This document shows positions 11,972 through 41,984 of a DNA stretch of 64,000 nt, in pieces (within the stretch, counting starts at the first letter, position 1; each line of letters begins with the position of its first letter). The stretch covers positions 204,901 through 268,900 of the forward strand of contig CAWJRR010000002.1 of assembly GCA_963845275.1 (NCBI GenBank), read 5' to 3'. The notes under the pieces were generated by a model. It was not told the origin of the DNA and did not search any database. It saw nothing but the letters and a program-made list of their open reading frames with translations. A program made the position numbers and the translations under genes. This stretch comes from Candidatus Bathyarchaeota archaeon. GTDB taxonomy: Archaea > Thermoproteota > Bathyarchaeia > 40CM-2-53-6.

Positions 11972-12117
11972 GCCGGGGTAGCCTAGCTAGGTAAGGCGAC
12001 AGAGCCCCTCAGCATTAAGATGAGGGACGTTGAACCTCGAGATCGATTTAGAAAACTGGGCCAAGAAAGCTGTTGGTCCTCTGGGCCTCGTGGGTTCAAA
12101 TCCCACCCCCGGCGCCA
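11972..12117 (+). tRNA. Intron-containing tRNA with encoded CCA; best model is type II tRNA-Ser(CGA) with two introns
   Basis: The acceptor GCCGGGG pairs with CCCCGGC, followed by discriminator G and CCA. D arm GCCT/AGGC; T arm GTGGG-TTCAAAT-CCCAC; long variable arm GGTCC-TCT-GGGCC. Removing 12004-12035 (32 nt) and about 12045-12070 (26 nt) gives the anticodon arm ACAGA-CTCGAGA-TCTGT and an 88-nt mature tRNA. Confidence 0.75.
12092..12117 (+). repeat. attL core: last 26 nt of the tRNA, repeated exactly at 40821-40846
   Basis: GGGTTCAAATCCCACCCCCGGCGCCA is read at both positions. The palindrome TTACTAGTAA lies at 12120-12129. Confidence 0.8.
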
Positions 12118-12169: not shown

Positions 12170-12697
12170 ATGGGAAAGAGCAGGGCCATCAACGAAAGGT
12201 ACGTGTACGCATACTTACCCTCCGTAGAGATGGTCCGGGACTGGAAAGTTAAGGCGAAGAAGAGCGGCGTCTCTATTTCACAATTCGTCTATGAACATGT
12301 GACAAACTCGTTGCGGCAGGAGGAGGGGGAGGAGAGCTACAAGCCTAGAGCCGAGCTGATCGAAGACCTCCGCAAGAAGGATGAGGCGATAGAGAAACTT
12401 AACCGGGAAAACGAGATCATCAAGCTGGCGTTGGAGAGGGTTGAGACAGAGCTTCGTAGGTATCGTTCTGAACCTTTCCTTCAAGAAAGATTTCAGGGTG
12501 TAAGAAAGTACGATCGACAGCTGATTGAACTTCTCAAGAAAGGGCAGGACGTGGATTCTGATCATCTCCTACGCCTCCTCAGAATCAGTCCGAAGGAGAC
12601 GGATCTGGTCAAAGCGGTCAGTAACCAGTTGGAGAACCTAGAAGCCTATGGTCTCGTGAAGAAAACTCGTCGGGGTTGGAGGTGGGTTGGTGAATGA
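12170..12697 (+). CDS. DNA-binding protein: ribbon-helix-helix N-terminus, coiled coil, winged-helix C-terminus (candidate excisionase/regulator)
   Basis: RHH-like YVYAYLPSVEMVRDWKVKAKKSGVSISQFVYEHV; a charged coiled-coil middle; a C-terminal LENLEAYGLVKKTRRGWRWV wing. The stop overlaps the integrase start (ATGA). Confidence 0.45.
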   Translation: MGKSRAINERYVYAYLPSVEMVRDWKVKAKKSGVSISQFVYEHVTNSLRQEEGEESYKPRAELIEDLRKKDEAIEKLNRENEIIKLALERVETELRRYRSEPFLQERFQGVRKYDRQLIELLKKGQDVDSDHLLRLLRISPKETDLVKAVSNQLENLEAYGLVKKTRRGWRWVGE

Positions 12698-13647
12698 GCC
12701 AGCAAACCCTAGTTGAATTACCTGCAGCTGGTAGGCTGGTGGATTTGTTTGTGCAGGATTGTCGGGACAGGGAGATGACGGAGGATTCGATTCAGCATTA
12801 CAGGTCAGTTGTGATGCATTTCTTCGAATTCCTCGATAAGCGAGACATCTTGCCTCGCCAGGTCGATAAGCAGGTTTTCATAGAGTACCTGCGGTATAGA
12901 AGATCGGAAGGCGTAGGCCAGAAAACTTTAGAGAACAACTTCACTGCACTTGCATCCTTCTACGACTACCTAGTCTTCCAAGAGTACATGGGGCAGAATC
13001 CTGTGACTGGAGTTCGGAAACGTTACCTACGTCGTTACAAAAGTGAAAACGACGTGGACGCTGAATCGCCTCGGAAACTCATCAGCATCGAAGAGATGAG
13101 CCTACTAGTCAATTCCGTACTGGACACGAGGGATAAGGGGATGCTTACCCTGTGGGCTAAAACGGGGGTTAGGCGTGGAGAGTTGATCGCCATGGACATA
13201 ACCGACATCGACTGGGTGGAACAGTCAATAACTCTGAAAAAGTTCAAGAAAAGAAGCGGCCGAATAGCATTCTTCGACGATGAAACCTCCAGAGTGCTTA
13301 AGCGCTGGGTAAACCAGCGTCAGATGTTAAACCCGTCCACCCCGGCTTTGTTTATCGGCGAGCACGGAGGGCGTCTGATGAGACACGGCGTCAACCACGC
13401 AGTTGCCAAGTACGCTGAGAGAGTTGGTCTCCATGATCCAAAATCTTCGCGCCTGGAAGATCACTTCTCACCACATTGTTTCCGTCACTGGTTCACGACA
13501 CACCTAAGGCGTGCCGGCATGGATCGGGAGTTCATCAAGGCACTTCGTGGAGACCGGAGGAGAGAAGCCATAGACATCTACGATCGAATCGATAAACAGG
13601 AGCTCCGTAGAGCCTACTTAGCATATATTCCACAATTGGGGCTCTGA
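12694..13647 (+). CDS. Tyrosine recombinase / phage-type integrase
   Basis: It has an N-terminal SAM-like core-binding region and catalytic motifs TGVRRGEL, HCFRHWFTTHLRRAG and AIDIYDRI (Tyr). It lies next to the tRNA. Confidence 0.85.
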   Translation: MSQQTLVELPAAGRLVDLFVQDCRDREMTEDSIQHYRSVVMHFFEFLDKRDILPRQVDKQVFIEYLRYRRSEGVGQKTLENNFTALASFYDYLVFQEYMGQNPVTGVRKRYLRRYKSENDVDAESPRKLISIEEMSLLVNSVLDTRDKGMLTLWAKTGVRRGELIAMDITDIDWVEQSITLKKFKKRSGRIAFFDDETSRVLKRWVNQRQMLNPSTPALFIGEHGGRLMRHGVNHAVAKYAERVGLHDPKSSRLEDHFSPHCFRHWFTTHLRRAGMDREFIKALRGDRRREAIDIYDRIDKQELRRAYLAYIPQLGL

Positions 13648-13670: not shown

Positions 13671-13694
13671 GTTCAAATCTGGTTGCCCGCACCA
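13671..13694 (+). other. Orphan 3' end of a different tRNA (T loop + T stem 3' strand + acceptor 3' strand + ACCA)
   Basis: GTTCAAATCTGGTTGCCCGCACCA has exact 7+5+7+1+3 tRNA 3'-half spacing. The upstream sequence cannot form the 5' half. Confidence 0.55.
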
Positions 13695-13701
13695 CGATAA
13701 C
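13688..13701 (+). repeat. 14-bp direct repeat CGCACCACGATAAC, second copy at 22288-22301
   Basis: Read at both positions, exactly 8600 bp apart. The copies bracket the nuclease + type I R-M module. Confidence 0.5.
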
Positions 13702-13913
13702 TCAATCCACGGTGGATGAACTATAATCATCAGCATCACGATAAGAAGCATTAGGCGGTCAACAGCAACCATGACCGAAAGACCTGAACATCAAGCCTCA
13801 AGAAGAGAGTATTATCGGCGCACTGAAGGGGAGAATACAGGCTCAAACATAGATTGTAACATGTACCAACCACTGATTCGTTAATCAACGGCTTTACGTT
13901 AAGGCGAGACTGA

Positions 13914-14474
13914 GTGGCTGACAATAAACCAGAATGTAAGTCTGGACAAGATTCGACTGAGCAAGAAATCAATGACATTCTAATTGTCGGTTTTACTGGC
14001 GAAGTAGCATACCAATATGTGAGAATAAGGCAACGGAAGAAAGGCGATATCTACGTAGAGAATCGCTATAAACCAGAAGGTCCACATTTTTCCTACCATG
14101 CAAGTGGCGAAATGCATGAGGTTTACGTCGATCAGCGCGGAAAGACCGTTCATAGCTTAACCGGTACTGGTCCACCTATCGCTCAGTTTCGAGGTGAAAT
14201 TAGCTTAGGAGGATGGACAATCTACGCCCCAGGTTTGCCCATTTGGAAACAATTTATGCCCAGCAAGGAGCGAAAGGCCCAGTTGATCGTACGTTTTGAT
14301 ATGACTCGTTTAACTGGATGGTTGGCTCTCAGTTTTCGACTTATTGAGATAGGACGACAGGACATTCTAGAAACGTTTCTACGGAGTTTGCAAAAGATGG
14401 ATGTTGAGGTTCTCGGTCATGTGACCATCAAAGATACGAATCCGTGGATTGTTATTGTGGCTGCAGCTGTCTAA
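13914..14474 (+). CDS. Hypothetical protein
   Basis: 186-aa GTG-start ORF, no recognised motif. Confidence 0.4.
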   Translation: MADNKPECKSGQDSTEQEINDILIVGFTGEVAYQYVRIRQRKKGDIYVENRYKPEGPHFSYHASGEMHEVYVDQRGKTVHSLTGTGPPIAQFRGEISLGGWTIYAPGLPIWKQFMPSKERKAQLIVRFDMTRLTGWLALSFRLIEIGRQDILETFLRSLQKMDVEVLGHVTIKDTNPWIVIVAAAV

Positions 14475-14537
14475 CGAATAGGAGTAAAGTAACAAACAGG
14501 AAGACAAGAGGAAAAGATAACTTCAGGCCGCAATATT

Positions 14538-14864
14538 CTAGCTCCACTCACAACCCCGGATTGGGCAACGCCAATTCGAATTCACAGGAACTTGTGGGTG
14601 AATCTCATTATCGGAAGGTGTGTAGTGATGGTAAAGTTCGCATTCGTACTTGTAGGCATCCATAGGAGAGGTAGCGTAGTCAAACCAAAAATGTATGTAA
14701 CTGCCTTCCGCCGCAGAGCTCGCAATTCTTCGTTGCAAGTCGGAGTCGGACCGGCCAACATAGCTTGCTGTACGTCCATCTTTCGAAAGAACGTAAACAC
14801 CCATGCATCCCCTATCAACACGCATGGACACTTGGTCCAACGGAAAAGGCCCCTGAAGAGCCAA
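14538..14864 (-). CDS. GIY-YIG family nuclease domain protein
   Basis: GVYVLSKDGRTASYVGRSDSDLQRRI (GIY...YxG...R), followed by YKYECELYHHY (conserved Glu). Confidence 0.5.
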   Translation of the reverse strand: MALQGPFPLDQVSMRVDRGCMGVYVLSKDGRTASYVGRSDSDLQRRIASSAAEGSYIHFWFDYATSPMDAYKYECELYHHYTPSDNEIHPQVPVNSNWRCPIRGCEWS

Positions 14865-14874
14865 CTTTATTGAC

Positions 14875-15183
14875 TCAACTCCTTCTGACGTTCTTGTTAC
14901 CAGAAGAAGTAACTACACATTCTCCAGAAGCATTGTTGTCCCACTGAAGCGGCCTCAGATTAGAAATGTTATTGTTGTCAGGATTTCCGTCTACGTGATG
15001 TACTTCCCATCCATAATCGGAATCCCGACTTCCATATCTAGTTCTGTGAATCCAAGCCGTACACTCATCTTTTCGCCACGCATCTTCGTCGATACCCGTA
15101 ACAACCGCTCCTTTGTTCCAAACTGCTTGAATCTCTTCAGGTGACCAAGTCTTCCTAGCCTCAGCCAAATCTCTGGCCCTCAC
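14875..15183 (-). CDS. Small HNH endonuclease
   Basis: GWEVHHVDGNPDNNNISNLRPLQWDNN (H-N-N/H motif). It lies 10 nt upstream of the GIY-YIG gene on the same strand. Confidence 0.65.
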   Translation of the reverse strand: MRARDLAEARKTWSPEEIQAVWNKGAVVTGIDEDAWRKDECTAWIHRTRYGSRDSDYGWEVHHVDGNPDNNNISNLRPLQWDNNASGECVVTSSGNKNVRRS

Positions 15184-15418
15184 TCTGAGGTCACCCTACT
15201 ATCTATTTGAAGAGATATGTCGTTAGGGATAAGTTTCGCATTACATTCAGTTTTGATAAGATTACTTTTACAGGACTCCACTATTCACATATAATCAACA
15301 GATTTATTGCATCCATTCTTTCAGCCAGGTGGGAGATAGCAAATTGGAGATTTGTTACACCCTATCCACAGCCTTTTCTAGCGTAGCCACTTAGTGTTCG
15401 TCCACGCATAAGGTCAGT

Positions 15419-16993
15419 GTGCCTTTGCGGGGTAGCGAAGATACGTCAGAGAATGAGAAAATGGTTCAGCATGTAATGTTACCTAGAAAAGTAACACGAG
15501 AAGAATTGAATTCACTTGTAGACAAAGCTGCAGATTTGATCAGAACTGCTGTGGATTACAAGTTCATTCTTGTTTTGTTGTTCTTGAAGAGAATCAATGA
15601 CCTTTGGAAAGCTGAGAAACGGCAGTACAAGCAGAGACTGGTGAAAGAGGCAGATTTGTCCGAGAAGGAAGCCGAAGAACAGAGCGAGAAACTTGAGTAC
15701 ACTTTCAAGATTCCGAAACAGTTCCTTTGGGACGAGATAACCAAAGACGTCAAGACTCTGCCAGAAAAACTTGCAACAGCAATAGGTGAAATTGCAAAAC
15801 TGAACACAGAACTTCAGGGTGTCATCAATAGGGTCGACTTCCTAGAATTTGCTAGGAATCAAGAGAACCGGGACCTCTTGCGACAATTGGTTGAGCTTTT
15901 CAATAGATACGATTTGGCTGGCGAGGAAGTTTCCCCAGACGTGCTCGGAGATGCATACGAGCACATACTCATGAAATTTGCACCCGACCGAGCAAAGGAG
16001 GGCGAGATTTACACCCCCAGAGAAGTCATCAAACTGATGGTCGAGATTCTTGATCCCAAACCTGGCGAGAAAGTGTATGACCCATGTTGTGGTTCCGGCG
16101 GTATGCTGATAATTTCGTACTTGCACGTGCACGACAAGCTCGGAGAAAAAGAAGCCAGGAAACTGTTCCTGTACGGGCAGGAGAGAAATCCAGAAATTTA
16201 CGCTGTCGGCGAAATGAACCTACTGCTTCATGACATCAAGAACGCTAATCTGGCGAACGGTGACACACTGGAGAGTCCGAGATTCAGGGACAATGGCAAG
16301 CTAGAGCAGTTCGAGGTAGTTATCGCAAATATCCCTTGGAATCAAGATGGTTACAACGAGGGAAGGCTCAAAGAAGCTAATTTCCGTGAGAGGTTCACTC
16401 TTGGTTTTCCTCCTCAAAATAGCGCCGATTGGGCCTGGATTCAACACATGCTTGCCTCGGCAAAAGAGAAAGGCAGGATTGCAGTCGTAGTTGACAACGG
16501 CTGCCTTTTCAGAGGAGGACAGGAGAAGAGTGTCAGAAGCAAGATTGTAGGAAAAGACTGGATTGAATGCGTTATCGTTTTGCCAGAAAAGCTCTTTTAC
16601 AATACGGGTGCCCCAGGAGCCATTATCGTCTTCAATAAGAACAAGCCCAAAGAGAGAGATAACAAGATACTCTTCATCAACGCTTCGAACGAGTATGTTA
16701 CACATCCATCAGTTAGAAGATTGAACGCTCTATCATCAGACAACATAGGAAAGATCGTAAGCGTCTATCAGAAGTTCTCTGCGGATCCTGGTTTCTCCAT
16801 AGCAGTGGAAATGAAAGAGATTAGCAAGAATGACTGCAATCTGAATGTGTCACTGTACGTAATGCCAATTGAAGAGGCAGAGAGGATTAGCATTTTCCAA
16901 GTCTATTCAGAGTTGAAGAAGCTGGAAGCCGACAGAGAGAAGATCAACGCACAGCTAGAAGAGGTGTTGGTTCAAATAAAAGAGATTGAGTGA
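15419..16993 (+). CDS. hsdM: Type I restriction-modification system, DNA methyltransferase subunit M
   Basis: HsdM N-terminal helical domain, AdoMet motif DPCCGSGGML, catalytic motif IV variant ANIPW. The likely true start is the ATG at 15461. Confidence 0.9.
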   Translation: MPLRGSEDTSENEKMVQHVMLPRKVTREELNSLVDKAADLIRTAVDYKFILVLLFLKRINDLWKAEKRQYKQRLVKEADLSEKEAEEQSEKLEYTFKIPKQFLWDEITKDVKTLPEKLATAIGEIAKLNTELQGVINRVDFLEFARNQENRDLLRQLVELFNRYDLAGEEVSPDVLGDAYEHILMKFAPDRAKEGEIYTPREVIKLMVEILDPKPGEKVYDPCCGSGGMLIISYLHVHDKLGEKEARKLFLYGQERNPEIYAVGEMNLLLHDIKNANLANGDTLESPRFRDNGKLEQFEVVIANIPWNQDGYNEGRLKEANFRERFTLGFPPQNSADWAWIQHMLASAKEKGRIAVVVDNGCLFRGGQEKSVRSKIVGKDWIECVIVLPEKLFYNTGAPGAIIVFNKNKPKERDNKILFINASNEYVTHPSVRRLNALSSDNIGKIVSVYQKFSADPGFSIAVEMKEISKNDCNLNVSLYVMPIEEAERISIFQVYSELKKLEADREKINAQLEEVLVQIKEIE

Positions 16994-17576
16994 CATGGTG
17001 CAGACTGTTTTTCTTGATACCGGCGTGATCTTAGACTATCTTGAAAATAGACACCAAGAAGTCAGAGATATAATTGCTCAACTCATGCTTCTTCACAAGA
17101 AAGCCAGAATCGTAGTAGCAACCTCAGTCTTCAACATCGCTGAGGTGATTGACAAGGAGTTCGAGATTCATTTCGTTGGTTGGTGTTTGAATGAGAGAAT
17201 GTCGTACGACGAGACGGTAAACAGACTGAGGAGTGACCCTAAGCTGGTCAAAGAAGTCTCGGAGAAGAATCAGAAGGCAGTGGAAAAGAGAATAAATGAT
17301 TTCGTTTTCAAGAATCAGATAACTGTGCTGTCGCTTTCTGCTGAATCAGAGCAGTACGAGGAGCAGTATGAGGAACTCTATACACTAATCTACGAACGCC
17401 AACTGAGATCGCAAGACGCATTAATTATCGCAACAGCGCTAACCAACAAGGTAACCTACTTTGTGTCTAATGACTCGGACCTCATCAGGAAAATCGGAGA
17501 AATGCTCGACAGTTACAACCTGAGGGACGAGGGTCTGCGCAAGTCGTTCCGTAACAACGTGCTAGAGGCGGTCTGA
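16986..17576 (+). CDS. PIN-domain (predicted RNase) protein embedded in the R-M operon
   Basis: Acidic PIN residues are in order: FLDTGVILDY, NIAEVIDKE, QDALIIATAL, FVSNDSDL. It overlaps the hsdM stop by 8 nt and ends 2 nt before hsdS. Confidence 0.6.
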   Translation: MSDMVQTVFLDTGVILDYLENRHQEVRDIIAQLMLLHKKARIVVATSVFNIAEVIDKEFEIHFVGWCLNERMSYDETVNRLRSDPKLVKEVSEKNQKAVEKRINDFVFKNQITVLSLSAESEQYEEQYEELYTLIYERQLRSQDALIIATALTNKVTYFVSNDSDLIRKIGEMLDSYNLRDEGLRKSFRNNVLEAV

Positions 17577-17578
17577 AG

Positions 17579-18859
17579 ATGGAAGAAAACATGGTCTACA
17601 GGGAGAAGGAGTTCAGCGATAGTGAGATTGGGAAAATCCCTAGGGACTGGGACTCTGCCAGACTGCAGACAATGGGAGGATTCCAATATGGAATTACTGC
17701 TTCAGCCATTGAAGAAGATACGGGCACTAAACTCCTAAGAATTACCGACATAAAGAACGGTGGAATCAACTGGGAAGAAATGCCAAATTGCAAGATTAGA
17801 CCAGCAGAGCTCAGGAGATATGAAATCTCCGTTGGAGACGTACTGTTCGCACGAATAGGCGCGACTACAGGGAAAACCTGCTACATAGACAAATCAGTGA
17901 AGGCGGTCTTCGGTTCTTATCTCATAAGATTTCTGCCGAAAACTGACGTTGACACCAAGTTCCTGTACTTCTTCGCCCAGTCAAAGCTATACTGGGACCA
18001 GGTTAATCGCAAGAAAGAGGGGCAACTGAAAAAAGGGCTGAACATCGCAACTTTGGGTAGCATGATTCTTCCGAGACCTCCTTTCCAAGAACAGCACAAA
18101 ATCGCAGCGATCCTCATGATTATTGATGGAGCTATTCAGAAGACCAACGAAATCATAGCGAAAACTCGACTCCTCAAGAAAGGCCTGATGCAGCAGCTCC
18201 TAACCAAAGGAATAGGGCACAAGGATTTCAAGTATAGTGAAGAGGTTGGCGCTGATATCCCGAAAGAGTGGAAGGTAGTTAGCCTTGGAGACGTGACGAT
18301 CATCCGGTATGGATTAGGACGGCCCCCAGAATCCGATGAGAATGGAGTTCCAATGATACGGGCAACGAACATAAAGCGAGGTGCCATCGTTGAAACGGGT
18401 CTTTTCAGGGTGAAACGTTCGGCTATTCCGAAGTCTCGCAATCCCTTCCTTCGAACAGGGGATGTTATCGTGGTCAGGAGTGGAGCTTACACAGGGGACA
18501 TAGCTCGTGTTACAGAGAAATGGGAGGGTGCAATTGCTGGGTATGATCTGATTCTTTCGCCTACAAAGAGGACGATCAACTCGGTCTATCTGGCGAACTA
18601 TCTCCTTGGCTCAAGAGTTCAAACGTACTTCTCGCGGCTCAGAGTTCGTGCAGCTCAGCCACACTTAAACTCAGATCAGGTTTCCCGTGTCCTCATTCCG
18701 CTTCCTTCACTTACTGAACAGGAACAGATTGCCAGGACTCTCTCCGTAGTTGACAAGAAACTCGAAATTGAAAGGAATGAAAAGGCAAACTTACAAGAAA
18801 TCAAACAGGCACTTATGGATTTGCTGCTTACGGGAAAAATCAGGATTAAGGTAGATTGA
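17579..18859 (+). CDS. hsdS: Type I R-M specificity subunit S
   Basis: Two target-recognition halves, each followed by a conserved helical spacer (PPFQEQHKIAAIL... and LPSLTEQEQIARTL...). Confidence 0.9.
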   Translation: MEENMVYREKEFSDSEIGKIPRDWDSARLQTMGGFQYGITASAIEEDTGTKLLRITDIKNGGINWEEMPNCKIRPAELRRYEISVGDVLFARIGATTGKTCYIDKSVKAVFGSYLIRFLPKTDVDTKFLYFFAQSKLYWDQVNRKKEGQLKKGLNIATLGSMILPRPPFQEQHKIAAILMIIDGAIQKTNEIIAKTRLLKKGLMQQLLTKGIGHKDFKYSEEVGADIPKEWKVVSLGDVTIIRYGLGRPPESDENGVPMIRATNIKRGAIVETGLFRVKRSAIPKSRNPFLRTGDVIVVRSGAYTGDIARVTEKWEGAIAGYDLILSPTKRTINSVYLANYLLGSRVQTYFSRLRVRAAQPHLNSDQVSRVLIPLPSLTEQEQIARTLSVVDKKLEIERNEKANLQEIKQALMDLLLTGKIRIKVD

Positions 18860-21800
18860 ATGACCTATAGTGAGAAGGGCACAGTCGAAGATTTCATCAT
18901 TCAAGAACTCAAGAAGCTGGGATGGAAGTACTTAACTCAAAAGGAAATAGAGGCAAAACGAAAGGATAGGCTTGAGGAACCGCTTGTTCTGGAGAACCTC
19001 AGAGAGTCAGTTAGAAAGCTCAATCCCGACATAAAGTTCACCGATGCTGATCTTGATTTTGTAGCTGTCTCGCTGAGAACGATACCATCGAATCTCGAAG
19101 GAATCAGAAGGGTTCTTGACATTTTCAGAAATGGCTTGGTTGTCCCTATACAGAAGGAGAACAAGGAGAAAGTCATCAGACTATTCGACCCTGAAAACGT
19201 CGATAAGAACGAATTCGTTGTAACGAATCAATTCAAACTCGAAGGCCCGAACAGGAACATCAGAGCGGACATTATTCTTCTTGTCAATGGTATCCCCCTA
19301 GTCTGCATCGAATGCAAGAGTCCGACCGGAGAGAGTGTCGATTGGACGACAGCCTATATACAGATAAAGAGATATGAGCGAGAGGCTCCTGAGCTTTTCA
19401 AGTATGTTCAATATTCGATAGCAACCGACGGAATGAAAACGAAGTACTTCCCCAATGGCTTCAACGAGGAGAACAAGGATTTTCTTAGCGAATGGAAAGA
19501 TCCGTATCCATTCAAAGTCGAGGAATTCAAAGAAGACATTCTGAAAATCACGATATACGGTCTCTTGTCAAAGTCGAATCTCCTCGACTTGATTGAGAAT
19601 TTCACGTTCATCAGGAAAGAGATAGACAAGTCTACGAAGATAATGACTCGGTACATGCAGTTCAGAGCATCGGAGAAGATCTATCGAAGAGTAATCAACA
19701 CTCTAGGGAAGAACGAAAACAGCAAGTTCGGCTTGATATGGCACTGGCAAGGCTCCGGCAAAACCTACACGATGGCATTCTCTGCGTGGAAGCTCTACAA
19801 CTCGCCTAAAGCCGAACGGCCTAGCATTTTCGTGCTTGTTGACAGAAAAAACCTTGAAGAACAGATTGAGAAGGATTTTGGCTTCATTGAAGTTCCGATA
19901 GAGAAGATTGAGCACGTAGATGGCTTGATCGAGGTTTTGAAATGGGGCAAGGAAGGAAAAAGAGGGATCTTTCTAGTAACCATTGAAAAGTTCAGACCGA
20001 AGGAATTTGCGAAGCTGAAAAAAGAAAGCGGCAAGATAGAAATCAAAAGGGAGAACGTGATTGTTCTCGCCGACGAGGTGCATAGAACCCAATACGGAAA
20101 ATTCAGAACGGTGATGAAAAGTGTTTTCAAGAAAGCCTTCATCTTCGGTTTTACGGGCACACCGCTCTCTAAACCAGAAAGGAACACGTTCCAGAAGTTC
20201 TGTCCGAGAGGAGAACTCTACCTCGATAGGTATTCGATGCTCGACGTGTTGAAGGATGGATTCACTGTCGAGCTCTCTTATGAGCCGAAACTCCCGGATT
20301 ATCACCTTAACGAGAAAGAGTATCGACAGTTCGTGAAATTCGAGGAGGAAGAGCTGAAGACACGATCGAAAGCAGAACAGAAGGAAATCAGGAAAAAGGT
20401 CAAGGTAATCGTCGCCTTTGTCAAGAAAAAGGAGCGGATAGAGGCGATCACCGAAGACATAGCTCATCACTTCAAGGACATAGTGGAGCCCACCGGCCTT
20501 AAGGCAATGGTTGTAACCATAGACAGAGATGCATGCATCCGATACAAGAATGCATTGGACCAAATTCTGCCGCCGAATTGTTCAGAGATTGTGATGACGT
20601 TCAATGCGAACGATAAGGAACCAATTAGAACCTACTTTGACAAGCTATCTAAGAAGTACGATTCTAAAGATCAAAAAGAAATTCATGACAAGATCATTGA
20701 ACGCTTCAAGGAAGCCAAAGAACTCAAGATTTTGATTGTAACTGACATGCTGATCACGGGATTTGACGCTCCTGTCCTTTGGACGATGTACCTCGACAAA
20801 CCATTGAAAGAGCACAGAGTTCTTCAGGCCATAGCACGAACGAACAGGCCGTATCTGAACAAGAAGTTTGGTTTGATTATCGATTATATTGGCATCCTTG
20901 CAGAGATGCAGAAGGCGTTCCAGAAATTCGAAGCAAGCGAAGCAAAAGACATCCGTGTCGTTATAAGACAGCTCGACAAGGAGAAAGACGAATTCAGAGA
21001 GCTGCTCCAGAAGGCTCTGAGAATTTTCCAGTCTGTGAAGAAGGAGGATACACGAGAAAGTCTAGAGGCTGCGATGAATGTTCTTGTGAATCCCGACATA
21101 GGCAAGCAATTTGAAATTACCATGAGAGCGCTCATGAAGTCGTACGAAATGCTCAGTGGAGACGAGTTTCTTGGGCCGTATCTTTCTGACTACACATGGC
21201 TCGCCAAAGTGCTTGTTGCCTATAACAAGCGGTTCAAGAAGAAAGATGTAGACGAGCTGAAAATAATAGAACTCTCAAAGAAGACATTCCAACTCATACA
21301 ACAAACAATCGACGTCAAAGAGATCGAGGATACATATCCGACTTTGAGTATTGATGCAAAATACGTTGAAGCCCTCAAGAAGTCTAAGCCTAATACAATC
21401 GGCGCTGCGATAGATATCATTACTAACATTCAGCACGAATCGAGAACGCATTCTAGCTCACCGTTCTTCCTCAACCTGAGTAGAGAAGTCGAAAGAACCT
21501 ATGAAGAACTGAGAACAAGAAAGATCGACACCCAAGAAGCGGTACGCAAGGCACTGGATTTCTCCGAAAAAATCGCGGAGTGGAAGAGGGAAGAGGAGGA
21601 AATAGGAAAAGAGAAGTATCCTCTATATGAAGCGCTGAAGACCGTCCTTCCCGACATCGAAAAGCAAAAGGCAGTGAAATTCATCACGCGTCTTATTGAC
21701 CATCTGAAAAAGTTGGATTTGCTCTTTGAAGGATGGCAACTGCAGAGGGATGTCCGCCGAAAGACATTGACTGAAACAAGACTGTTAATCTTGTCAGAGT

Positions 21801-21868
21801 TCAAAGGGCATCGTGACAAGATCGACGAACTTACAGAGCAAGTGTTCGGGGCCTTGGAGGGAGAATAA
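18860..21868 (+). CDS. hsdR: Type I R-M restriction subunit R (nuclease + SF2 translocase)
   Basis: PD-(D/E)xK motif ADIILLVNGIPLVCIECK, Walker A WQGSGKTYT, DEAH-like LADEVHRTQ, helicase C motifs (QAIARTNR). The start abuts the hsdS stop. Confidence 0.92.
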   Translation: MTYSEKGTVEDFIIQELKKLGWKYLTQKEIEAKRKDRLEEPLVLENLRESVRKLNPDIKFTDADLDFVAVSLRTIPSNLEGIRRVLDIFRNGLVVPIQKENKEKVIRLFDPENVDKNEFVVTNQFKLEGPNRNIRADIILLVNGIPLVCIECKSPTGESVDWTTAYIQIKRYEREAPELFKYVQYSIATDGMKTKYFPNGFNEENKDFLSEWKDPYPFKVEEFKEDILKITIYGLLSKSNLLDLIENFTFIRKEIDKSTKIMTRYMQFRASEKIYRRVINTLGKNENSKFGLIWHWQGSGKTYTMAFSAWKLYNSPKAERPSIFVLVDRKNLEEQIEKDFGFIEVPIEKIEHVDGLIEVLKWGKEGKRGIFLVTIEKFRPKEFAKLKKESGKIEIKRENVIVLADEVHRTQYGKFRTVMKSVFKKAFIFGFTGTPLSKPERNTFQKFCPRGELYLDRYSMLDVLKDGFTVELSYEPKLPDYHLNEKEYRQFVKFEEEELKTRSKAEQKEIRKKVKVIVAFVKKKERIEAITEDIAHHFKDIVEPTGLKAMVVTIDRDACIRYKNALDQILPPNCSEIVMTFNANDKEPIRTYFDKLSKKYDSKDQKEIHDKIIERFKEAKELKILIVTDMLITGFDAPVLWTMYLDKPLKEHRVLQAIARTNRPYLNKKFGLIIDYIGILAEMQKAFQKFEASEAKDIRVVIRQLDKEKDEFRELLQKALRIFQSVKKEDTRESLEAAMNVLVNPDIGKQFEITMRALMKSYEMLSGDEFLGPYLSDYTWLAKVLVAYNKRFKKKDVDELKIIELSKKTFQLIQQTIDVKEIEDTYPTLSIDAKYVEALKKSKPNTIGAAIDIITNIQHESRTHSSSPFFLNLSREVERTYEELRTRKIDTQEAVRKALDFSEKIAEWKREEEEIGKEKYPLYEALKTVLPDIEKQKAVKFITRLIDHLKKLDLLFEGWQLQRDVRRKTLTETRLLILSEFKGHRDKIDELTEQVFGALEGE

Positions 21869-22251
21869 TGAGCAGAGCAATTGTGCAAACTGGATTGTGT
21901 GATGAGCGTCAGGTTGAGGCGTTCTACTTGACACTCTCTGATATCTACGAACAAATAAGAACGGAAAGAAGAATTGATGTCTTCGGTAACTTGGATTTCG
22001 AGGTTGTTAGAAGCATAGATGGTAAGAAAAATAGGATTGCAAAACTTAAAGGGAGCAAGATACTCGTACATGTGAACGCTAGGCTATTGCCGAAGAGTGC
22101 CCTAAGATATGTCATAGCCCATGAGATTGCTCACACGCTTACGAAGAGGCATACGAGGCGATTCTGGAAAGTTGTAAAAGCCATAGACCCCAAGTTCGAG
22201 ATAGGCCAGAGTCTTCTCATGAGGCACGGCAAAAGATTTCAAGCTGATTAG
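21868..22251 (+). CDS. YgjP/DUF45-like zinc metallopeptidase (HExxH), R-M associated
   Basis: YVIAHEIAHTLTKRHTRRFWKVV follows the DUF45 pattern. The start overlaps the hsdR stop (TAATG). Confidence 0.6.
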   Translation: MSRAIVQTGLCDERQVEAFYLTLSDIYEQIRTERRIDVFGNLDFEVVRSIDGKKNRIAKLKGSKILVHVNARLLPKSALRYVIAHEIAHTLTKRHTRRFWKVVKAIDPKFEIGQSLLMRHGKRFQAD

Positions 22252-22287
22252 TATCAGCGCACTTCATTAGAGCGGCGGCGGGGGCGG

Positions 22288-22301
22288 CGCACCACGATAA
22301 C
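22288..22301 (+). repeat. Second copy of CGCACCACGATAAC; local context also resembles the island attR junction
   Basis: CGGCGCACCACGATAACC (22.3 kb) versus CGGCGCCAGAACGATAACC (40.84 kb). Confidence 0.45.
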
Positions 22302-23905: not shown

Positions 23906-24244
23906 TTGTCAACGAGAAAATACCGTGATCCACTGCTAAACGTGTCGGATACTTCACGCGGAACAACTCAAAATGACTTGCCCTGCAGCCCGGAGATGTA
24001 TCTCGAAAAATTCGAAGAAGCCGTAGGGCCCTTGCGAAAGATCCGGATTGATCACACTCGACTTCATGTCAAATTAGCGTCAATTGACCTCTGCCTCGAT
24101 TTCGATTCAAAGAAGCAGGCCGAACTGACATTCGAGGAATTGCATAACATGCACGGGAAGACGGTGGGGATACTCAGACAATCAACTAACTGCGTTCGTG
24201 TTCGCACCGTCCCCTACTTCACTGAGCGAGATGAACAAGTTTGA
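23906..24244 (+). CDS. Hypothetical protein, translationally coupled to the downstream transposase-like gene
   Basis: 112-aa TTG-start ORF with a 4-nt overlap with the 24241 ORF. Confidence 0.35.
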   Translation: MSTRKYRDPLLNVSDTSRGTTQNDLPCSPEMYLEKFEEAVGPLRKIRIDHTRLHVKLASIDLCLDFDSKKQAELTFEELHNMHGKTVGILRQSTNCVRVRTVPYFTERDEQV

Positions 24245-25857
24245 CGGACGACAGAGACATCTCCCTGTATCGGTTTCTGCCTGACAAAGACGGTGACATT
24301 CCGACTTCAGATTCCGGAAAATGCAAAGTGGTTGGTGCTATCGACTCGACGACTCTCAACCGCAAACCAGGGTGGAGGATAGGAGCGAAGCACGCGATGA
24401 GAACGCTGCGTGACCGAAAACGTGAGACGCAATGCCAGCGCATAAGTTGCCTAGATAGGTATTGTGTGAACCTTCAACCCGAAGTCAGCATAGTGAACTC
24501 ACCCCCCAATGTTCCAATGATCTATTCCCGTTTGAACTACGACCAAACTCTTCCTTCCATTACCCCTCTGTGTCCTCCCACCATGATCCGATCTCTGGAT
24601 CATCCCATTAATCTGACATACTCGACTCCCGAGGAAATGCTACGAAAGTCAGTGCTAGAATCTCCCCCTCTCACTTGCACTCACTGTGGTTCCACTAATG
24701 TGACGTTGAACCCGTGGGTCCACAACGTGGAGTCCTACGTCTGCTCGGCTTGCAAACGGAAATTCGTTCCTCCCAAGTGCATAAGCCAGATTGTTGGGTG
24801 GAATATAGTGAAGGAAGTTGTTGACGACATATACGGGTCAGGCAATACGATTCGTGACGAAGTAGCATCTCTCGCAAGGAAACAAATACCTGTAAATCCC
24901 ATGTTCATCAGTCGAATGCTCAACACAATCGGAGCTGCAATTGACGCCCCAATGACGATAGCGCGGAAGTACCGACTGAAATTTTCCCCCTACTTGTGCA
25001 TCGACCTGACGTATATCCCCATCCGCAGGCATCGCACGCCAAACAGTGAACTTACTGAGTTTCCTGTCCTCTTCGCAGGAGATCCAATGACCACATATGC
25101 GTTCCAGGGTCGAATGGTCCATGTCGACCTACCAAAGTCGCGAGAAGACAAAGTGTTAGTTGACGCGTACATCAGAGAGATCGATGAAATAATGAAAGCC
25201 CTTGGGCGCGAGTATGAGAATAGCCTAAGAGTGGTAATTGTTGACCCGGAACGAGCACTAATTTCAGCCATCAAAACACGACTTCCTACGAAACGAATAC
25301 AGGTTGATACAGTTCACGTGATCAGAAAAGTCGAGAAGATACTGCCTACAATCCGAAAATCCAAGTTACCAGAGGATGAGCTTGAGGCTAGACGAAAATT
25401 GAAAGACACCATAAGAAGCATCATGGCCTCAACTTCTAGGATACAGTTTGACGTCCGACTTTCTGATCTGCTGACCCACTACGACGGATTTGACGAAAAA
25501 AAGAAAAAAGCTCTGCGAGTTGTGCAAAGATACAAAGACATGTTGAAAACACACTTTGCATTTGAAGACGCGCCTAAAACGAGCAACTTCGCGGAACGTC
25601 TAATTCAGGAAGTTGAAGAGCCTCTGGATAAGAGGAGAGGTTTCAATTCCTATGATTCAGCGGATCGCAATCTAAGCCTTTATCTGAATTGCTTTAACTT
25701 CAGAAAGATTCGAAGTAGCAAAACGGGATTGGAAGGATACACCGCTTTTCAGCTTGCGGGTGGGTTGATAGATACTCATTGGTTGGATGTAGTGTACAAA
25801 GGAGAACAGAGAACATGGCGAGCTCGCGTTCGGAAGGAATCGAAGAATATTCGCTAA
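24241..25857 (+). CDS. Transposase-like protein (zinc ribbon + IS256/Mutator-like DDE pattern)
   Basis: Zinc ribbon CTHCGS...CSACKRKF. Candidate DDE residues lie in CIDLTYIPI, VVIVDPERALISAIKTRLP..IQVDTVHVIRKV and TSNFAERLIQEVE. The order and spacing resemble IS256/MULE transposases. Confidence 0.4.
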   Translation: MTDDRDISLYRFLPDKDGDIPTSDSGKCKVVGAIDSTTLNRKPGWRIGAKHAMRTLRDRKRETQCQRISCLDRYCVNLQPEVSIVNSPPNVPMIYSRLNYDQTLPSITPLCPPTMIRSLDHPINLTYSTPEEMLRKSVLESPPLTCTHCGSTNVTLNPWVHNVESYVCSACKRKFVPPKCISQIVGWNIVKEVVDDIYGSGNTIRDEVASLARKQIPVNPMFISRMLNTIGAAIDAPMTIARKYRLKFSPYLCIDLTYIPIRRHRTPNSELTEFPVLFAGDPMTTYAFQGRMVHVDLPKSREDKVLVDAYIREIDEIMKALGREYENSLRVVIVDPERALISAIKTRLPTKRIQVDTVHVIRKVEKILPTIRKSKLPEDELEARRKLKDTIRSIMASTSRIQFDVRLSDLLTHYDGFDEKKKKALRVVQRYKDMLKTHFAFEDAPKTSNFAERLIQEVEEPLDKRRGFNSYDSADRNLSLYLNCFNFRKIRSSKTGLEGYTAFQLAGGLIDTHWLDVVYKGEQRTWRARVRKESKNIR

Positions 25858-25887: not shown

Positions 25888-26009
25888 CTGTAACGAAACC
25901 CCGATTCGTTACAGATACTGAGCAAGTGTAAGACCCACCGTAACGTTACGCCACCCTTATTGGTGCTGTAACATTACAGTCGGTTTCGCCTGAATCTGCA
26001 CTCTGTAAC
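25888..26009. repeat. Cluster of four TGTAAC/GTTACA-based palindromes
   Basis: The cluster has a 10-bp-stem hairpin CTGTAACGAA-N7-TTCGTTACAG (25888-25914) and the palindrome CGTAACGTTACG (25939-25950). It also has CTGTAA-CA-TTACAG (25966-25979) and CTGTAAC (26003-26009). Confidence 0.6.
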
Positions 26010-26105
26010 AATCGAGGGGTATGGATAAGGTACCATCAAGTGCGAGTAACAAGGATGTTGAAGATGAGAGGTTATAGCGGACTGCAGAAATCGGAATTTC
26101 AGGAG

Positions 26106-27212
26106 CTACATTCTTTTCGTTGCGTTTCGAGTTAGCTCCAGCCATTTGTTTCTCATCTTGAGCGTTAGACCTGCACGCTCGCTAGGAGATGCCCCTCCTA
26201 AGTGTGCGTGAGGTCGGACGAAGTTGTAGTATATCATTGATCCTTGAGCGAAAGTATTTCCCGTGTCCAGGCTCTCTAAACCCTTCGTTAGGTCGTAACG
26301 TGGTCTGAGAGTACCGTGTAATCGCTCCACTACGTTATTGTTGCTCGGATCAGTAAATTTGGGGCTTGAAATGTGTCTTCGAATCTGCAGCTGCTTGGTT
26401 GCTTTCGGATATGACTTTAACCCGTCCGAGACGACGCAGTCCGATTTCTTGCCTGAATACTCTATCGCTTTCTCCAACACATGGCAGGCCTCTTCTGTGC
26501 TCCTGCCGGTAGTGATTTCTGACACGAGCAAGAATCTTGTTTTCCTGTCCAGCACATTCCATAGGTAGCTTTTCTTCCCGTTGACTTTCACGACCATTTC
26601 ATCCACATGCCACTCTCCACCCACCTGCGGAGTCATCTTAGCAGTAAACTTCGAAACTAGTTTCACATACTTCGTTATCCAGCGATAAACGCTCATGTGT
26701 GACACTTCACAGCCGTAAACCGTTGACAAATGATGCTGAATGTCACGGATGCTGACGTTCTTGAAGTAGAGATCCAATGCAGCAATGATCATGAGTGGGT
26801 CGTTACGCATCTTCGAGAAACCGAACCTGTCACTAAACTTGTATCCGCAACGTTTGCATTGATAACGTGCTGTAGACCCGGATTTGGTGCGTCTTTTTCC
26901 AATGCTCACTGTATCCTCGGGACTTGAATTACATCTTGGACAGGTCAACAACTCATAGTTCTGATTCGTCATGAGAATTTGCGGGAGCCTGTTCAGGAAC
27001 CCAATGGCATAGATATGTTTGCATGATGTCCCCGACTTTTCATTGTCAGGACAGTCGCAGACCCACTTTCCATTCAGCCATTCGACCGAGTACCAATTGT
27101 TTGATTTCTGAGAATGAACCTGATAGTTGTGCTGCGCTAATCTTCTTATTTGGCCACCACGTGAAACAATTTCCATTCCTCGAAGCTGTCGCATCCGTGA
27201 ACCGGCCATCAA
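26106..27212 (-). CDS. SWIM zinc finger + zinc ribbon + IS6/IS240-family DDE transposase
   Basis: SWIM motif CDCPDNEKSGTSCKH; zinc ribbon CPRCNS...CKRCGYKF; DDE core WHVDEMVVKV...YLWNVLD, VVSDGLKSYPKA, NNVVERLHGTLRPR, YYNFVRPH. Confidence 0.75.
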   Translation of the reverse strand: MMAGSRMRQLRGMEIVSRGGQIRRLAQHNYQVHSQKSNNWYSVEWLNGKWVCDCPDNEKSGTSCKHIYAIGFLNRLPQILMTNQNYELLTCPRCNSSPEDTVSIGKRRTKSGSTARYQCKRCGYKFSDRFGFSKMRNDPLMIIAALDLYFKNVSIRDIQHHLSTVYGCEVSHMSVYRWITKYVKLVSKFTAKMTPQVGGEWHVDEMVVKVNGKKSYLWNVLDRKTRFLLVSEITTGRSTEEACHVLEKAIEYSGKKSDCVVSDGLKSYPKATKQLQIRRHISSPKFTDPSNNNVVERLHGTLRPRYDLTKGLESLDTGNTFAQGSMIYYNFVRPHAHLGGASPSERAGLTLKMRNKWLELTRNATKRM

Positions 27213-27242
27213 GCGCTCCCTCTTTTCCAGTTTCCAACTTCC

Positions 27243-27830
27243 TTATTCCGAAAAATCACCGAACGGGAAAACGGGTAGAGGCATGTCCACAGATTGGGTT
27301 TCTTTGTTCATGCCGTTGAACGGGCAACTTTCATTTGCGCAGGTATAGCAAACGTCCTCGTGTGGCTTGTAATTTACGGCTGCCTTCTTTGGGTCTTTGG
27401 CCAGCAGCTCCCTGGTTAAGCGGGCTCTCTCCCGAGCTTCCCAGATGAATTGATCGTCAAGGACGATGTCTTCATGCCGGTTGGAGAGAACTAATTCATT
27501 TTGATCGTTAGGGTACAGAGCTGCTTGAAGTTTGTGGACCTCTCTGAGCTTATTAGCTGACTTTACTTCCACGAGCCTGGTTTTATCGGTGGGGTCGACG
27601 AAGATAAGATCAATTCGAAACCCGGTTCCGCGCTTTTCGATGGCGTCTAACTTGTAACCTAACTTTAGATGCCTCGCAATCACCCTTAGAGCTGCCGTCG
27701 CGTGCAAACCATGAAACTTGGACGCATTCTCCATGCTGAAAGGTGCTGAAACGTATGCTGGGCAGAGTATCTTTCTAGCTAAAAGGGAAGGAGGCGGCCA
27801 GATTCTTGAGACCGCCTTCATGGATGCCAT
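27243..27830 (-). CDS. Solo Cas4-like PD-(D/E)xK nuclease with Fe-S cysteine set
   Basis: N-terminal Cys (ILCPAY), RIDLIFVD...LVEVKS (D...ExK), HKLQAALY (QxxxY), C-terminal CYTCANESC. No CRISPR array or other cas gene is present in the window. Confidence 0.6.
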   Translation of the reverse strand: MASMKAVSRIWPPPSLLARKILCPAYVSAPFSMENASKFHGLHATAALRVIARHLKLGYKLDAIEKRGTGFRIDLIFVDPTDKTRLVEVKSANKLREVHKLQAALYPNDQNELVLSNRHEDIVLDDQFIWEARERARLTRELLAKDPKKAAVNYKPHEDVCYTCANESCPFNGMNKETQSVDMPLPVFPFGDFSE

Positions 27831-28005
27831 CCCCTCCGCAGTAACGCTAGCTGAACCTTTCGAAGCTCAGCTCGCTTTCCATTACGCGAAGCGGAACGGA
27901 TCGCGTCATCCAAGAGCAATAAAAATCTCTCTTGGCGTTCCGAGCCATCCAACATGGGATGGAAGACCAGAGTTTGGTTGCGGTTGCTCAACTTCGATAC
28001 ACAAT

Positions 28006-28070: not shown

Positions 28071-28229
28071 TTGCCCATAACCCTCAAGCGAACTCTCGTC
28101 AAAATAGGCGGGAGTCTACGACTGACTGTTCCGCGAGAAGTAGCGGATATTCTGAAGGTTAAGGAAGGAGACGAGATTGAATTTTCCACCACGAATGGGG
28201 ATGTCGTGATACGGAAAGCAAGAAATTGA
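28071..28229 (+). CDS. AbrB/SpoVT-type (swapped-hairpin) DNA-binding protein, 52 aa
   Basis: TTG ORF not in the track: (M)PITLKRTLVKIGGSLRLTVPREVADILKVKEGDEIEFSTTNGDVVIRKARN. This is the classic SpoVT-AbrB pattern. It competes with the motif-less track ORF 27932-28162. Confidence 0.6.
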   Translation: MPITLKRTLVKIGGSLRLTVPREVADILKVKEGDEIEFSTTNGDVVIRKARN

Positions 28230-40820: not shown

Positions 40821-40846
40821 GGGTTCAAATCCCACCCCCGGCGCCA
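40821..40846 (+). repeat. attR core: orphan copy of the tRNA 3' end
   Basis: It is identical to 12092-12117 over 26 nt. The upstream sequence cannot form the 5' tRNA half. TTACTAGTAA lies at 40807-40816. Confidence 0.8.
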
Positions 40847-40951
40847 GAACGATAACCCATAGGGTTCTCGATTCAACGTTCTCAGTCAGTTACATGAACA
40901 CGCGTTTGGCCGAACGTTCTCAACGGATTGTGTAATTTCATGGCAATAATG

Positions 40952-41365
40952 TTAGAGAAACCAACTCACGATTTTGACTGGTTCCAGCCTTACCATCACA
41001 GTAGAATCATTAAGCTTGAACTTCTCTCGGTACTGAACATATTTCTCCCTTAGCAGCGACAAGCTTCTCCACTGTTCCTCCTGGCCTGGTTGAAGAAATA
41101 TCGCTTTGCCGTAGACAAGAATCCCCTTGTTACCGGACCAATCATCTACGTAAGAATCAAGCTCAACCGAGACGACATTGTTCTTCTTGAGATTTCGCCA
41201 TCGTTTCGCGCTTTTATTTGCACAGTGAACGTAGAAGTTGCGTCCATCGAAGGCGAAGCAAAGTGGCACGCTATGGAGCTGGCCGTCAGGCGTCAAGGAA
41301 TTGAATCTCAAAACACCTTGGCTGGCAATGAAGACCTTTTCCTCTTCAGAGAATTCACTTACCAT
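40952..41365 (-). CDS. Pyridoxamine 5'-phosphate oxidase-like (FMN/F420 split-barrel) family protein
   Basis: 137 aa. The FIASQGVLRFNSLTPDGQLHSVPLCFAFDGRNFYVH pattern is typical of PPOX-class proteins. Confidence 0.55.
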   Translation of the reverse strand: MVSEFSEEEKVFIASQGVLRFNSLTPDGQLHSVPLCFAFDGRNFYVHCANKSAKRWRNLKKNNVVSVELDSYVDDWSGNKGILVYGKAIFLQPGQEEQWRSLSLLREKYVQYREKFKLNDSTVMVRLEPVKIVSWFL

Positions 41366-41375
41366 GCTCGTCGCC

Positions 41376-41948: not shown

Positions 41949-41984
41949 TTATCCTCACACACTTCCACGATGAACTCTCAGGTT

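Follow-up and report, generated by a model that had tools for sequence, protein, structure and literature searches.

Solo Cas4-like nucleases are common on mobile elements, and what they do there is for the most part unknown. In its main text, the phylogenomic survey of Cas4 places such proteins in casposons, viruses and helicase-linked loci and mentions no transposase, integrase, TniQ or Tn7 (PMC5704561), and the recognisable Cas4 homologues of Bathyarchaeia viruses have been proposed to function in counter-defence (PMC10541130). In this study, we analysed a 64,000-nucleotide stretch of a Candidatus Bathyarchaeota archaeon genome (contig CAWJRR010000002.1, positions 204,901 to 268,900; hereafter the window), in which a gene for a Cas4-like nuclease (NUC) stands immediately upstream of a gene for an IS6-type DDE transposase. 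The original prediction, made from the window alone, suggested that the two genes may be one transcription unit, either a transposon with a Cas4 passenger or partner or a domesticated transposase working with an end-processing nuclease. Comparison with homologous loci shows the pair to be one of several forms of a recombination module with an exchangeable recombinase, carried within a larger island that is integrated at a tRNA gene. The known kind is a Cas4-like nuclease borne by a mobile genetic element; the new aspect is a coupling that is indifferent to the class of the recombinase.

The nearest described relatives are the solo Cas4 proteins of mobile elements (PF01930, COG1468; SIRV2 gp19 and the Bathyarchaeia virus homologues), with which NUC shares a length of ~190-200 aa, the D...ExK and QxxxY motifs, one plus three Cys residues, carriage on a mobile element with neither cas1/cas2 nor a CRISPR array nearby, and best, though weak, fold matches to viral Cas4/RecB-family proteins. 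NUC differs from them in falling below the Cas4 profile cut-offs, in the CxxCx4C spacing of its C-terminal Cys residues (the usual Cas4 spacing is x5), in having no Cas4 among its PDB matches, in belonging to a narrow family (55 of 1.84 billion representatives) and in standing in operons with recombinases. It is also unlike CRISPR-linked Cas4, since its neighbours at the 83 loci compared are recombinases rather than cas1/cas2 or an array. Integrative elements and phages are known to exchange tyrosine, serine or DDE integrases on a common backbone. This integration-module swapping resembles the present system, in which the small ORF (open reading frame), NUC and the C8 and C7 genes described below form the backbone and a recombinase slot varies in class; however, the element here already has a separate, conserved tyrosine integrase that targets the tRNA, the slot holds a convergent recombinase pair, and the nuclease gene abuts or overlaps the start of the first recombinase.

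The IS6/IS26 family, including its zinc-finger clades h and i (PMC7986276), is matched by the transposase of the window in the equivalog model passed, in the DDE set with an Arg seven residues after the Glu and in the N-terminal zinc-binding extension, and a related element of the genus carries inverted repeats tipped with GG and target duplications of 8 bp. Unlike members of that family, the window gene is single-copy and unbracketed (the 15-20-bp terminal repeats are absent), has no duplication, and has end-like arms only downstream, where they abut. The review of the family describes zinc-finger N-terminal extensions and one member with a passenger gene, and mentions no SWIM domain or nuclease partner (PMC7986276). 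TnsA of Tn7-like transposons is also a PD-(D/E)XK nuclease encoded first, beside a DDE transposase, as NUC is in the TniQ/TnsB/TniB operon of locus L011, whereas it has no sequence or profile similarity to NUC, which is coupled to tyrosine and serine recombinases as well. The survey of Tn7 target selectors has Cas4 solely as a component of CRISPR adaptation modules (PMC10293859).

The two genes have the sizes and the minus-strand orientation first described, and the gap between them is indeed 30 nt (27213-27242; Table 1). Because homologues of the transposase begin MAGSRMRQ, the ATG at 27209 may be its true start. Both genes are single-copy in their own genome (a 2.26-Mb assembly, 78% complete). 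The prediction that the window holds no CRISPR array or other cas genes stands for the array, none being found in the window, and for the proteins scanned at ~12-43 kb, among which no Cas family scored above its cut-off; the scan for cas genes covered no other part of the window.

Table 1. Features of the window discussed in the text (positions in nucleotides of the window)
Feature	Position	Strand	Basis
tRNA gene with an intron; the attL core is its final 26 nt (12092-12117)	11973..12117	+	read from sequence
175-aa protein (C15) and 317-aa tyrosine integrase (C7) adjoining the tRNA gene	12170..13647	+	Pfam Phage_integrase, 94.7 bits
Nested 8.6-kb type I restriction-modification module (hsdM, PIN, hsdS, hsdR, YgjP)	13688..22301	+	Pfam
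112-aa protein, cluster C8; overlaps the start of the RecB gene by 4 nt	23906..24244	+	homologues at other loci
538-aa zinc-ribbon and ISL3/IS256-like DDE protein, RecB position; convergent with the pair	24241..25857	+	Pfam DDE_Tnp_ISL3, 35.7 bits (cut-off 23)
Conserved non-coding block with four GTTAC-centred sites, two plus two inverted	25895..26023		alignment of the window, L006, L014 and L017
368-aa SWIM, zinc-ribbon and IS6-family DDE transposase, RecA position	26106..27212	-	NCBIfam, Pfam, catalytic residues
195-aa four-Cys PD-(D/E)XK nuclease, Cas4/RecB-like (NUC)	27243..27830	-	ORF list, homologue alignment, AF2 model
57-aa small ORF, cluster C4; ends ...LLRRGWHP and overlaps the nuclease start	27818..27991	-	ORF list, homologues
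52-aa AbrB/MazE-type DNA-binding protein, divergent	28071..28229	+	Pfam MazE_antitoxin, 41.6 bits (cut-off 24.7)
attR core, a perfect direct repeat of the final 26 nt of the tRNA gene; bounds the 28.7-kb island	40821..40846	+	repeat match

A metagenome scan confirmed 110 nuclease loci, 80 of which were retrieved, and genes were clustered over 83 loci. As the prediction had required of a real unit, the pair recurs: at ~35 independent metagenomic loci, a SWIM-IS6 gene lies 3' of the nuclease gene on the same strand at close spacing, and in genome G029 a nuclease of 51% identity is followed by a SWIM-IS6 gene with overlapping stop and start codons. The nuclease is not specific to this transposase, since its close relatives also precede tyrosine, serine or Tn7-like genes. 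In 50 of the 57 loci at which both ORFs were called, the next gene is a co-oriented mobility gene (28 IS6, 14 serine recombinase, 7 tyrosine recombinase and 1 TniQ), and further loci on the gene map have the same nuclease-recombinase layout. At the tyrosine-type loci, the recombinase that follows the nuclease is itself followed by a second, convergent tyrosine recombinase; at the serine-type loci, the serine recombinase is followed by a TFIIB homologue and a convergent large serine recombinase; and the Tn7-like locus continues after TniQ with a Mu/TnsB-like transposase, TniB and another TniQ. We refer to the positions of the first recombinase and of the second, convergent recombinase in the module as RecA and RecB, respectively. 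Counted from the nuclease stop, tyrosine partners start at -49 to +24 nt, serine partners at -41 to +24 nt and IS6 partners mostly at -59 to +72 nt, and for the 50 mobility genes taken together most starts fall between -59 and +30 nt; overlaps of -4 are common, and the larger IS6 distances belong to loci with an intervening, separate SWIM-only ORF. Such ORFs of ~100-140 aa, found between the nuclease and a full-length SWIM-IS6 gene at L013, L049, L063, L066 and others, match residues 1-83 of the transposase of the window and hold only its N-terminal, SWIM-containing region.

Over the 83 loci, the modules have a common plan, in which an AbrB-like gene diverges from a co-oriented set of C4, nuclease and RecA genes, toward which the RecB and C8 genes converge; beyond C8 there are often one or two more genes, after which come C7, a conserved tyrosine integrase, and its partner C15. 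The RecA gene directly adjoins the RecB gene or overlaps it. In the RecB position, L006 has a homologue of the 538-aa protein of the window, and the tyrosine and serine modules have a second recombinase of their own class. Homologues of the C8 protein, which has no family match, lie 5' of RecB in both tyrosine-type (L018, L074) and serine-type (L042, L067) loci.

The class of the partner has been exchanged repeatedly. A maximum-likelihood tree of 48 nucleases requires at least 10 changes of partner class, where the lowest possible number is 3, and well-supported sister tips differ in class (L006, IS6, and L008, tyrosine; L035, serine, and L039, tyrosine; L030, IS6, and L033, serine). The clade of four nucleases to which that of the window belongs has IS6, tyrosine and Tn7-like partners. 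Between L067 (serine) and L074 (tyrosine), the DNA is 88% identical from 460 nt 5' of the nuclease gene to ~15 nt before its stop, diverges from there on, and is 85% identical again at the C7 integrase. Exchange of recombinase cassettes between related backbones appears to fit these data better than repeated insertion of small elements at the nuclease 3' end. The latter reading, in which NUC is unrelated to the recombinases and different small elements repeatedly target its 3' end, draws on the positions at which similarity between loci with different recombinases ends (0 to ~75 nt, i.e., 0 to ~25 codons, before the nuclease stop), on the hypervariable C-terminal tail of the nuclease and on L012, where host-like genes lie directly 3' of a nuclease gene that diverges past residue 170. 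We nevertheless consider it very unlikely, because a search as for attachment (att) sites, which covered the downstream DNA of 24 loci and 27 kb of the window, found the 3' end of the nuclease gene directly repeated over 13 nt at most, nothing above chance, and because the abutting or overlapping RecA and RecB genes leave no space for element ends. In every class, moreover, the recombinase gene begins right at the nuclease stop or overlaps it, and C8, on the opposite flank, is conserved with its reading frame unchanged.

Other candidate boundaries were set aside in these comparisons. The apparent left boundary between L075 and L076 was rejected as an element end, as similarity decays gradually there; the breakpoint between L062 and L070 lies inside the IS6 gene and is uninformative on ends; and the inverted repeats inside the tyrosine recombinase pairs are not flanking sites but shared coding motifs of the paralogues. 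The RecB proteins of L029 and L047 (tyrosine) and of L049 (DDE) share an N-terminal winged-helix-like segment of ~80 aa (BLASTP E ~1e-6), which suggests a targeting domain shuffled between catalytic classes.

The nuclease carries the full Cas4-type motif set described in the prediction, which consists of an N-terminal Cys (C23), D74 with E88-V-K90, Q102xxxY106 and C161xxC164xxxxC169. All of 28 homologues of 42-69% identity keep residues C23, H43, E65, D74, E88, K90, Q102, Y106, C161, C164 and C169 unchanged, and C23, D74, Q102 and the three C-terminal Cys remain invariant at identities down to 20%; the tail beyond the Cys cluster is hypervariable in the 28-homologue alignment. The four-Cys motif probably holds an Fe-S cluster. 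The expected match to a Cas4 profile was not obtained, since the protein lies under every Pfam cut-off (Cas_Cas4, 14.1 bits against 22.7), with further sub-threshold matches to PDDEXK_3, SfsA and NOV_C. Cas_Cas4 reached at best E = 0.0014 among 17 family members scored, and the PADLOC Cas4b score is 14.7 bits. In an hhalign comparison with five local Cas4/PDDEXK_1 proteins, the D..ExK..QxxxY core falls in register at a probability of 0.3%, which is not significant. No TnsA family profile matches the nuclease.

The AlphaFold2 (AF2) model of NUC has a predicted local distance difference test score (pLDDT) of 86 and a predicted template modelling score (pTM) of 0.80, with a pLDDT of ~90 over the Cys-rich C-terminus. 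Foldseek returned nothing from the PDB at E <= 1e-3 and no solved Cas4 structure among its matches, and the weak fold matches are to further PD-(D/E)XK nucleases (lambda Exo, RecE, NucS/EndoMS and the nuclease domain of AdnAB). Among the predicted viral structures of BFVD, entries annotated as Cas4, RecB-family exonuclease or DUF83 are among those that rank highest (E 2e-3 to 3e-2, probability 0.89-0.99, template modelling score 0.36-0.39), the best of the Cas4/RecB-family proteins lying at E 2e-3 to 1e-2. A sequence-profile search of the PDB with the family alignment gave spurious matches to repeat proteins only. The invariant D...ExK, QxxxY and four-Cys residues, the confident AF2 model and the fold matches to Cas4/RecB-family proteins and to the AdnAB nuclease domain argue that the protein would be competent as a nuclease, and NUC is best described as a predicted Cas4/RecB-like four-Cys PD-(D/E)XK enzyme that is not filed under PF01930 (COG1468).

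The family is small. A search of 5.8 billion clustered proteins gave 49 relatives, for none of which a Pfam domain is recorded except the weakest, partial match P0049 (PF09509), and the sole informative source name among them is "Candidatus Bathyarchaeia archaeon". A profile search of the 1.84 billion representatives retrieved the 55 members mentioned above and nothing else. The gene was found in 5 of the 401 genomes of the class, in a single copy every time, and on the 110 metagenome contigs; a scan of genome contigs with the family alignment gave no relatives, and the family was not found in the IMG/VR, phage and plasmid collections searched. It is an archaeal family borne by integrated mobile elements, the hosts of which are probably Bathyarchaeia. 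Two distant homologues of ~28% identity, L004 (G003:C45) and L005 (G010:C2), have no adjoining recombinase and may be chromosomal relatives of the mobile-element nuclease. L125:277-3632 (G009:C361) has, in this order, a 243-aa PDDEXK_1/Cas4 protein that passes Pfam, a 221-aa protein with SWIM-like and zinc-ribbon parts but no DDE domain, and a ParB-N protein, which makes another pairing of a Cas4-type with a SWIM protein in the same genus.

These data bear on a role like that of the Cas4 homologues of rudiviruses and Bathyarchaeia viruses, in which NUC would hamper the acquisition of CRISPR spacers by the host or serve the replication or recombination of the element, its adjacency to recombinases being mere module order. 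Solo Cas4 proteins borne by mobile elements are well documented, as set out in the main text of the Cas4 survey (PMC5704561), the Bathyarchaeia virus homologues were proposed to inhibit adaptation or to aid replication (PMC10541130), and the best fold matches of NUC are viral Cas4/RecB-family proteins. On the other hand, the family is not found in the viral, phage or plasmid collections, the nuclease fails the Cas4 profiles, and its near-universal coupling to the start codon of recombinases of four classes is left unexplained; we regard such a role as unlikely.

The identification of the second protein as an IS6-type DDE transposase is borne out by NCBIfam transpos_IS6 (139.5 bits, cut-off 125) and Pfam DDE_Tnp_IS240 (76 bits). 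Its catalytic set is intact, with D204, D263, E296 and R303, the basic residue seven after the Glu, and two CxxC pairs are present (C91, C119). Of the SWIM domain named in the prediction, the signature (C52xC54x9C64xH66) is present, and the Pfam score lies just under the cut-off (PF04434, 19.3 against 19.6 bits). Searches around the pair in the window and at 17 IS6-type loci gave no inverted repeats that enclose the transposase, alone or together with the nuclease, and no target-site duplication was identified around the pair. The congener G010 carries on contig C2 a SWIM-IS6 element of 2,748 bp, present in two 100% identical copies (L110:324-3071 and L112:324-3071), whose GG-tipped inverted repeats begin GGTAACGT and contain subterminal CTGT(G)TAACAA sites and which is flanked by the 8-bp target duplications ATCCCGAG and TTACGTAA. 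Its four passenger ORFs encode a retropepsin-like aspartyl protease, a DUF5678 protein and two small proteins, and no nuclease gene is among them. The G010 transposase passes the SWIM profile (25.8 bits) and is ~33% identical to the homologue in L003.

Since its copies are identical and target duplications are present, the G010 element has evidently transposed; no nuclease gene lies inside it, and a related transposase has therefore moved without one in its element. This speaks against the nuclease as a passenger or partner of SWIM-IS6 elements, just as the absence of terminal repeats and target duplication and the single copy number speak against a two-gene transposon with a Cas4 passenger. 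Because no inverted repeats bracket it, it is single-copy and the G010 insertion sequence (IS) lacks a nuclease gene, the pair of nuclease and transposase is not an autonomous IS.

Immediately 3' of the transposase stop, the conserved non-coding block (Table 1) resolves in a gapped alignment into two ~57-nt arms ~15 nt apart, 80-210 nt downstream of the transposase, which are alike each other and the left and right inverted repeats (IRL/IRR) of the G010 element. The density of GTAAC/GTTAC in the block is ~8 times the window mean. Its reading as abutted IS6-type ends is provisional because an ungapped repeat search of the block gives inverted repeats of 10-14 nt only. If the arms are real, the cognate ends of the transposase would be abutted, as in a circle junction, and the pair would not be bracketed. 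A genome-wide scan for the subterminal motif ATACCCCN6GTTACAG gave chance matches only, none of them near an IS6 or nuclease gene.

In a reading close to the original prediction, NUC could act as a TnsA-like partner that cuts the non-transferred 5' strands at transposon ends, by which an IS6-family transposase, normally a maker of cointegrates, would gain cut-and-paste transposition, or by which an abutted-end circle junction would be opened. The tight adjacency to a catalytically intact IS6 transposase at ~35 loci, the conserved paired arms downstream of the transposase and the first place of the family in a Tn7-like operon, which is the TnsA position in Tn7, speak for such a partnership. Against this, tyrosine and serine recombinases, for which a second nuclease is unnecessary, stand in equally tight coupling with near-identical nucleases, the related G010 element moves with 8-bp duplications and no nuclease gene, and NUC has no TnsA profile match. 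A TnsA-like function is thus distinctly improbable in our judgement.

The Tn7-like operon is found in two versions, L011:6010-12573 and L124:4101-11507 (G016:C1), each consisting of a Cas4-type nuclease, TniQ, an 871-893-aa Mu/TnsB-like transposase, TniB and a second TniQ. The identities between the two are 42% for TniQ, 55% for the TnsB-like protein, 67% for TniB and 29% for the second TniQ. The first gene belongs to the NUC family in L011, and in G016 it encodes a 199-aa protein that matches PDDEXK_1 (42.9 bits) and Cas_Cas4 (30.6 bits). This in-place replacement in orthologous operons suggests that the NUC family and a Pfam-passing Cas4-type nuclease do the same job there, which ties the family functionally to recognised Cas4-type enzymes. 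The N-terminus of the Tn7-like TnsB resembles a TnsA motif set, a reading that Pfam, with no match in that region, did not confirm.

Upstream of the nuclease, homologues of the C4 small ORF (42-60% identity) are found in L007, L011, L015 and L044, among others, and a core of ..HP..DG....F..LL......G..R..L...Q..LL.RGWHP is kept in many loci; no Pfam or PHROG family matches the protein. An additional 109-aa ORF separates the small protein from the nuclease in L006 and L014. L018 and L038 have AbrB-like genes divergent from the nuclease operon; the same arrangement was read off the sequence in L013, L020, L032 and L070. This arrangement admits a stabilisation cassette of the toxin-antitoxin kind, in which the 57-aa protein would neutralise the nuclease and cells that lose or rearrange the element would be penalised. 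The conserved small ORF that overlaps the nuclease start, the portability of the cassette between unrelated recombinases and the adjoining divergent regulator with an AbrB/MazE fold all accord with it, and the toxin-antitoxin pairs that Tn3-family transposons carry beside their resolvase genes are a precedent. Nevertheless, neither the C4 protein nor the nuclease matches a known toxin or antitoxin family or a PADLOC model, the extra ORF in L006 and L014 comes between the two genes, and we know of no four-Cys Cas4-type nuclease that acts as a toxin. We consider a toxin-antitoxin function rather unlikely.

The reading that we prefer, and to which we give an even chance of being correct, is that NUC is an accessory enzyme in the exchangeable recombination module of a family of mobile elements, probably of Bathyarchaeia, with a generic role in the processing of DNA ends or flaps. 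The nuclease is the middle gene of a compact, conserved operon, between the 57-aa protein and an interchangeable recombinase, on which an operon of C8 and RecB usually converges, and it would be co-produced with whichever recombinase the element uses. As a processor of DNA ends or flaps without sequence specificity, it would trim the ends, flaps or linear by-products of element movement and would have no part in the strand-transfer chemistry itself; a part in strand transfer is unlikely because tyrosine and serine recombinases need no nuclease and because partners are swapped between near-identical nucleases.

Several points weigh against the preferred reading. Membership of the nuclease in Cas4 fails at the profile level in Pfam, PADLOC and hhalign alike, and the Lys of the ExK motif (K90) is substituted in some more distant family members. 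The distant homologues in L004 and L005 adjoin a facing uracil-DNA glycosylase gene or a tetratricopeptide repeat (TPR) protein. The chemistry of tyrosine and serine recombinases does not require a nuclease for processing its products, and the overlapping small ORF upstream fits a toxin-antitoxin layout equally well. Provisionally, the IS-end-like arms also imply that the IS6 gene keeps its cognate sites, which makes a direct partnership of nuclease and transposase possible in this variant.

We hold a further reading to be a long shot. The small ORF and the nuclease would together be a portable helper for DDE, tyrosine, serine and Tn7-like recombinases that controls ends or junctions, and the IS6 variant would be a giant transposon circle opened or trimmed by the nuclease. 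If so, the excised circular island would form a giant IS6-type transposon circle through its abutted arms, by a previously undescribed IS6 pathway, and the element would have a second integration route beside the tRNA integrase.

The module of the window lies within an island that was inserted into a tRNA gene by its own tyrosine integrase. The tRNA gene, missed by both ARAGORN and Rfam (the Rfam search of the window gave zero matches), has the acceptor stem GCCGGGG/CCCCGGC, the T-arm GTGGGTTCAAATCCCAC and a long intron, and it is conserved across the genus. The congener G002 has the empty site, with the homologue of window position 43.2 kb at most ~170 nt after the tRNA, and the intervening island DNA is missing from other congeners too. 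The ~2.4 kb between the right att repeat and the first DNA shared with G002 (40847-43202) is likewise missing from G002 and is possibly what is left of a second insertion into this tRNA gene. In the related element L014, the C7 and C15 proteins (84% and 72% identical to the integrase and the 175-aa protein of the window, respectively) adjoin the same tRNA end and lie 3.7 kb from a nuclease-IS6 pair, the transposase of which is 77% identical to that of the window. The restriction-modification module is flanked by the 14-nt direct repeat CGCACCACGATAAC at 13688 and 22288 and is absent from L014. The island also carries metabolic cargo (a permease, a thiamine pyrophosphate (TPP) enzyme, Dak1/Dak2 and DUF2099), and no viral or plasmid hallmark gene was seen in the element of the window. 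Elsewhere in the window, the sole tandem repeat (989-3139; 336-nt unit, 6.5 copies, 91% identity) probably encodes a repeated protein domain.

One narrow nuclease family is thus tied by gene order and by the overlap of start and stop codons to four mechanistically unrelated classes of mobility enzyme, which gives the Cas4-like nucleases of mobile elements a defined and testable setting. Because the partner has been exchanged many times, across four classes, between near-identical nuclease genes, the comparisons point to the exclusion of a role bound to one recombination chemistry and to a task that would be either generic at element movement or one of stabilisation. The loci also show that a little-studied class of archaea, probably Bathyarchaeia, has a family of islands that integrate at tRNA genes, that IS6 transposases include a branch with SWIM domains, an active member of which carries passenger genes, and that there are Tn7-like operons in archaea in which a Cas4-type nuclease comes first.

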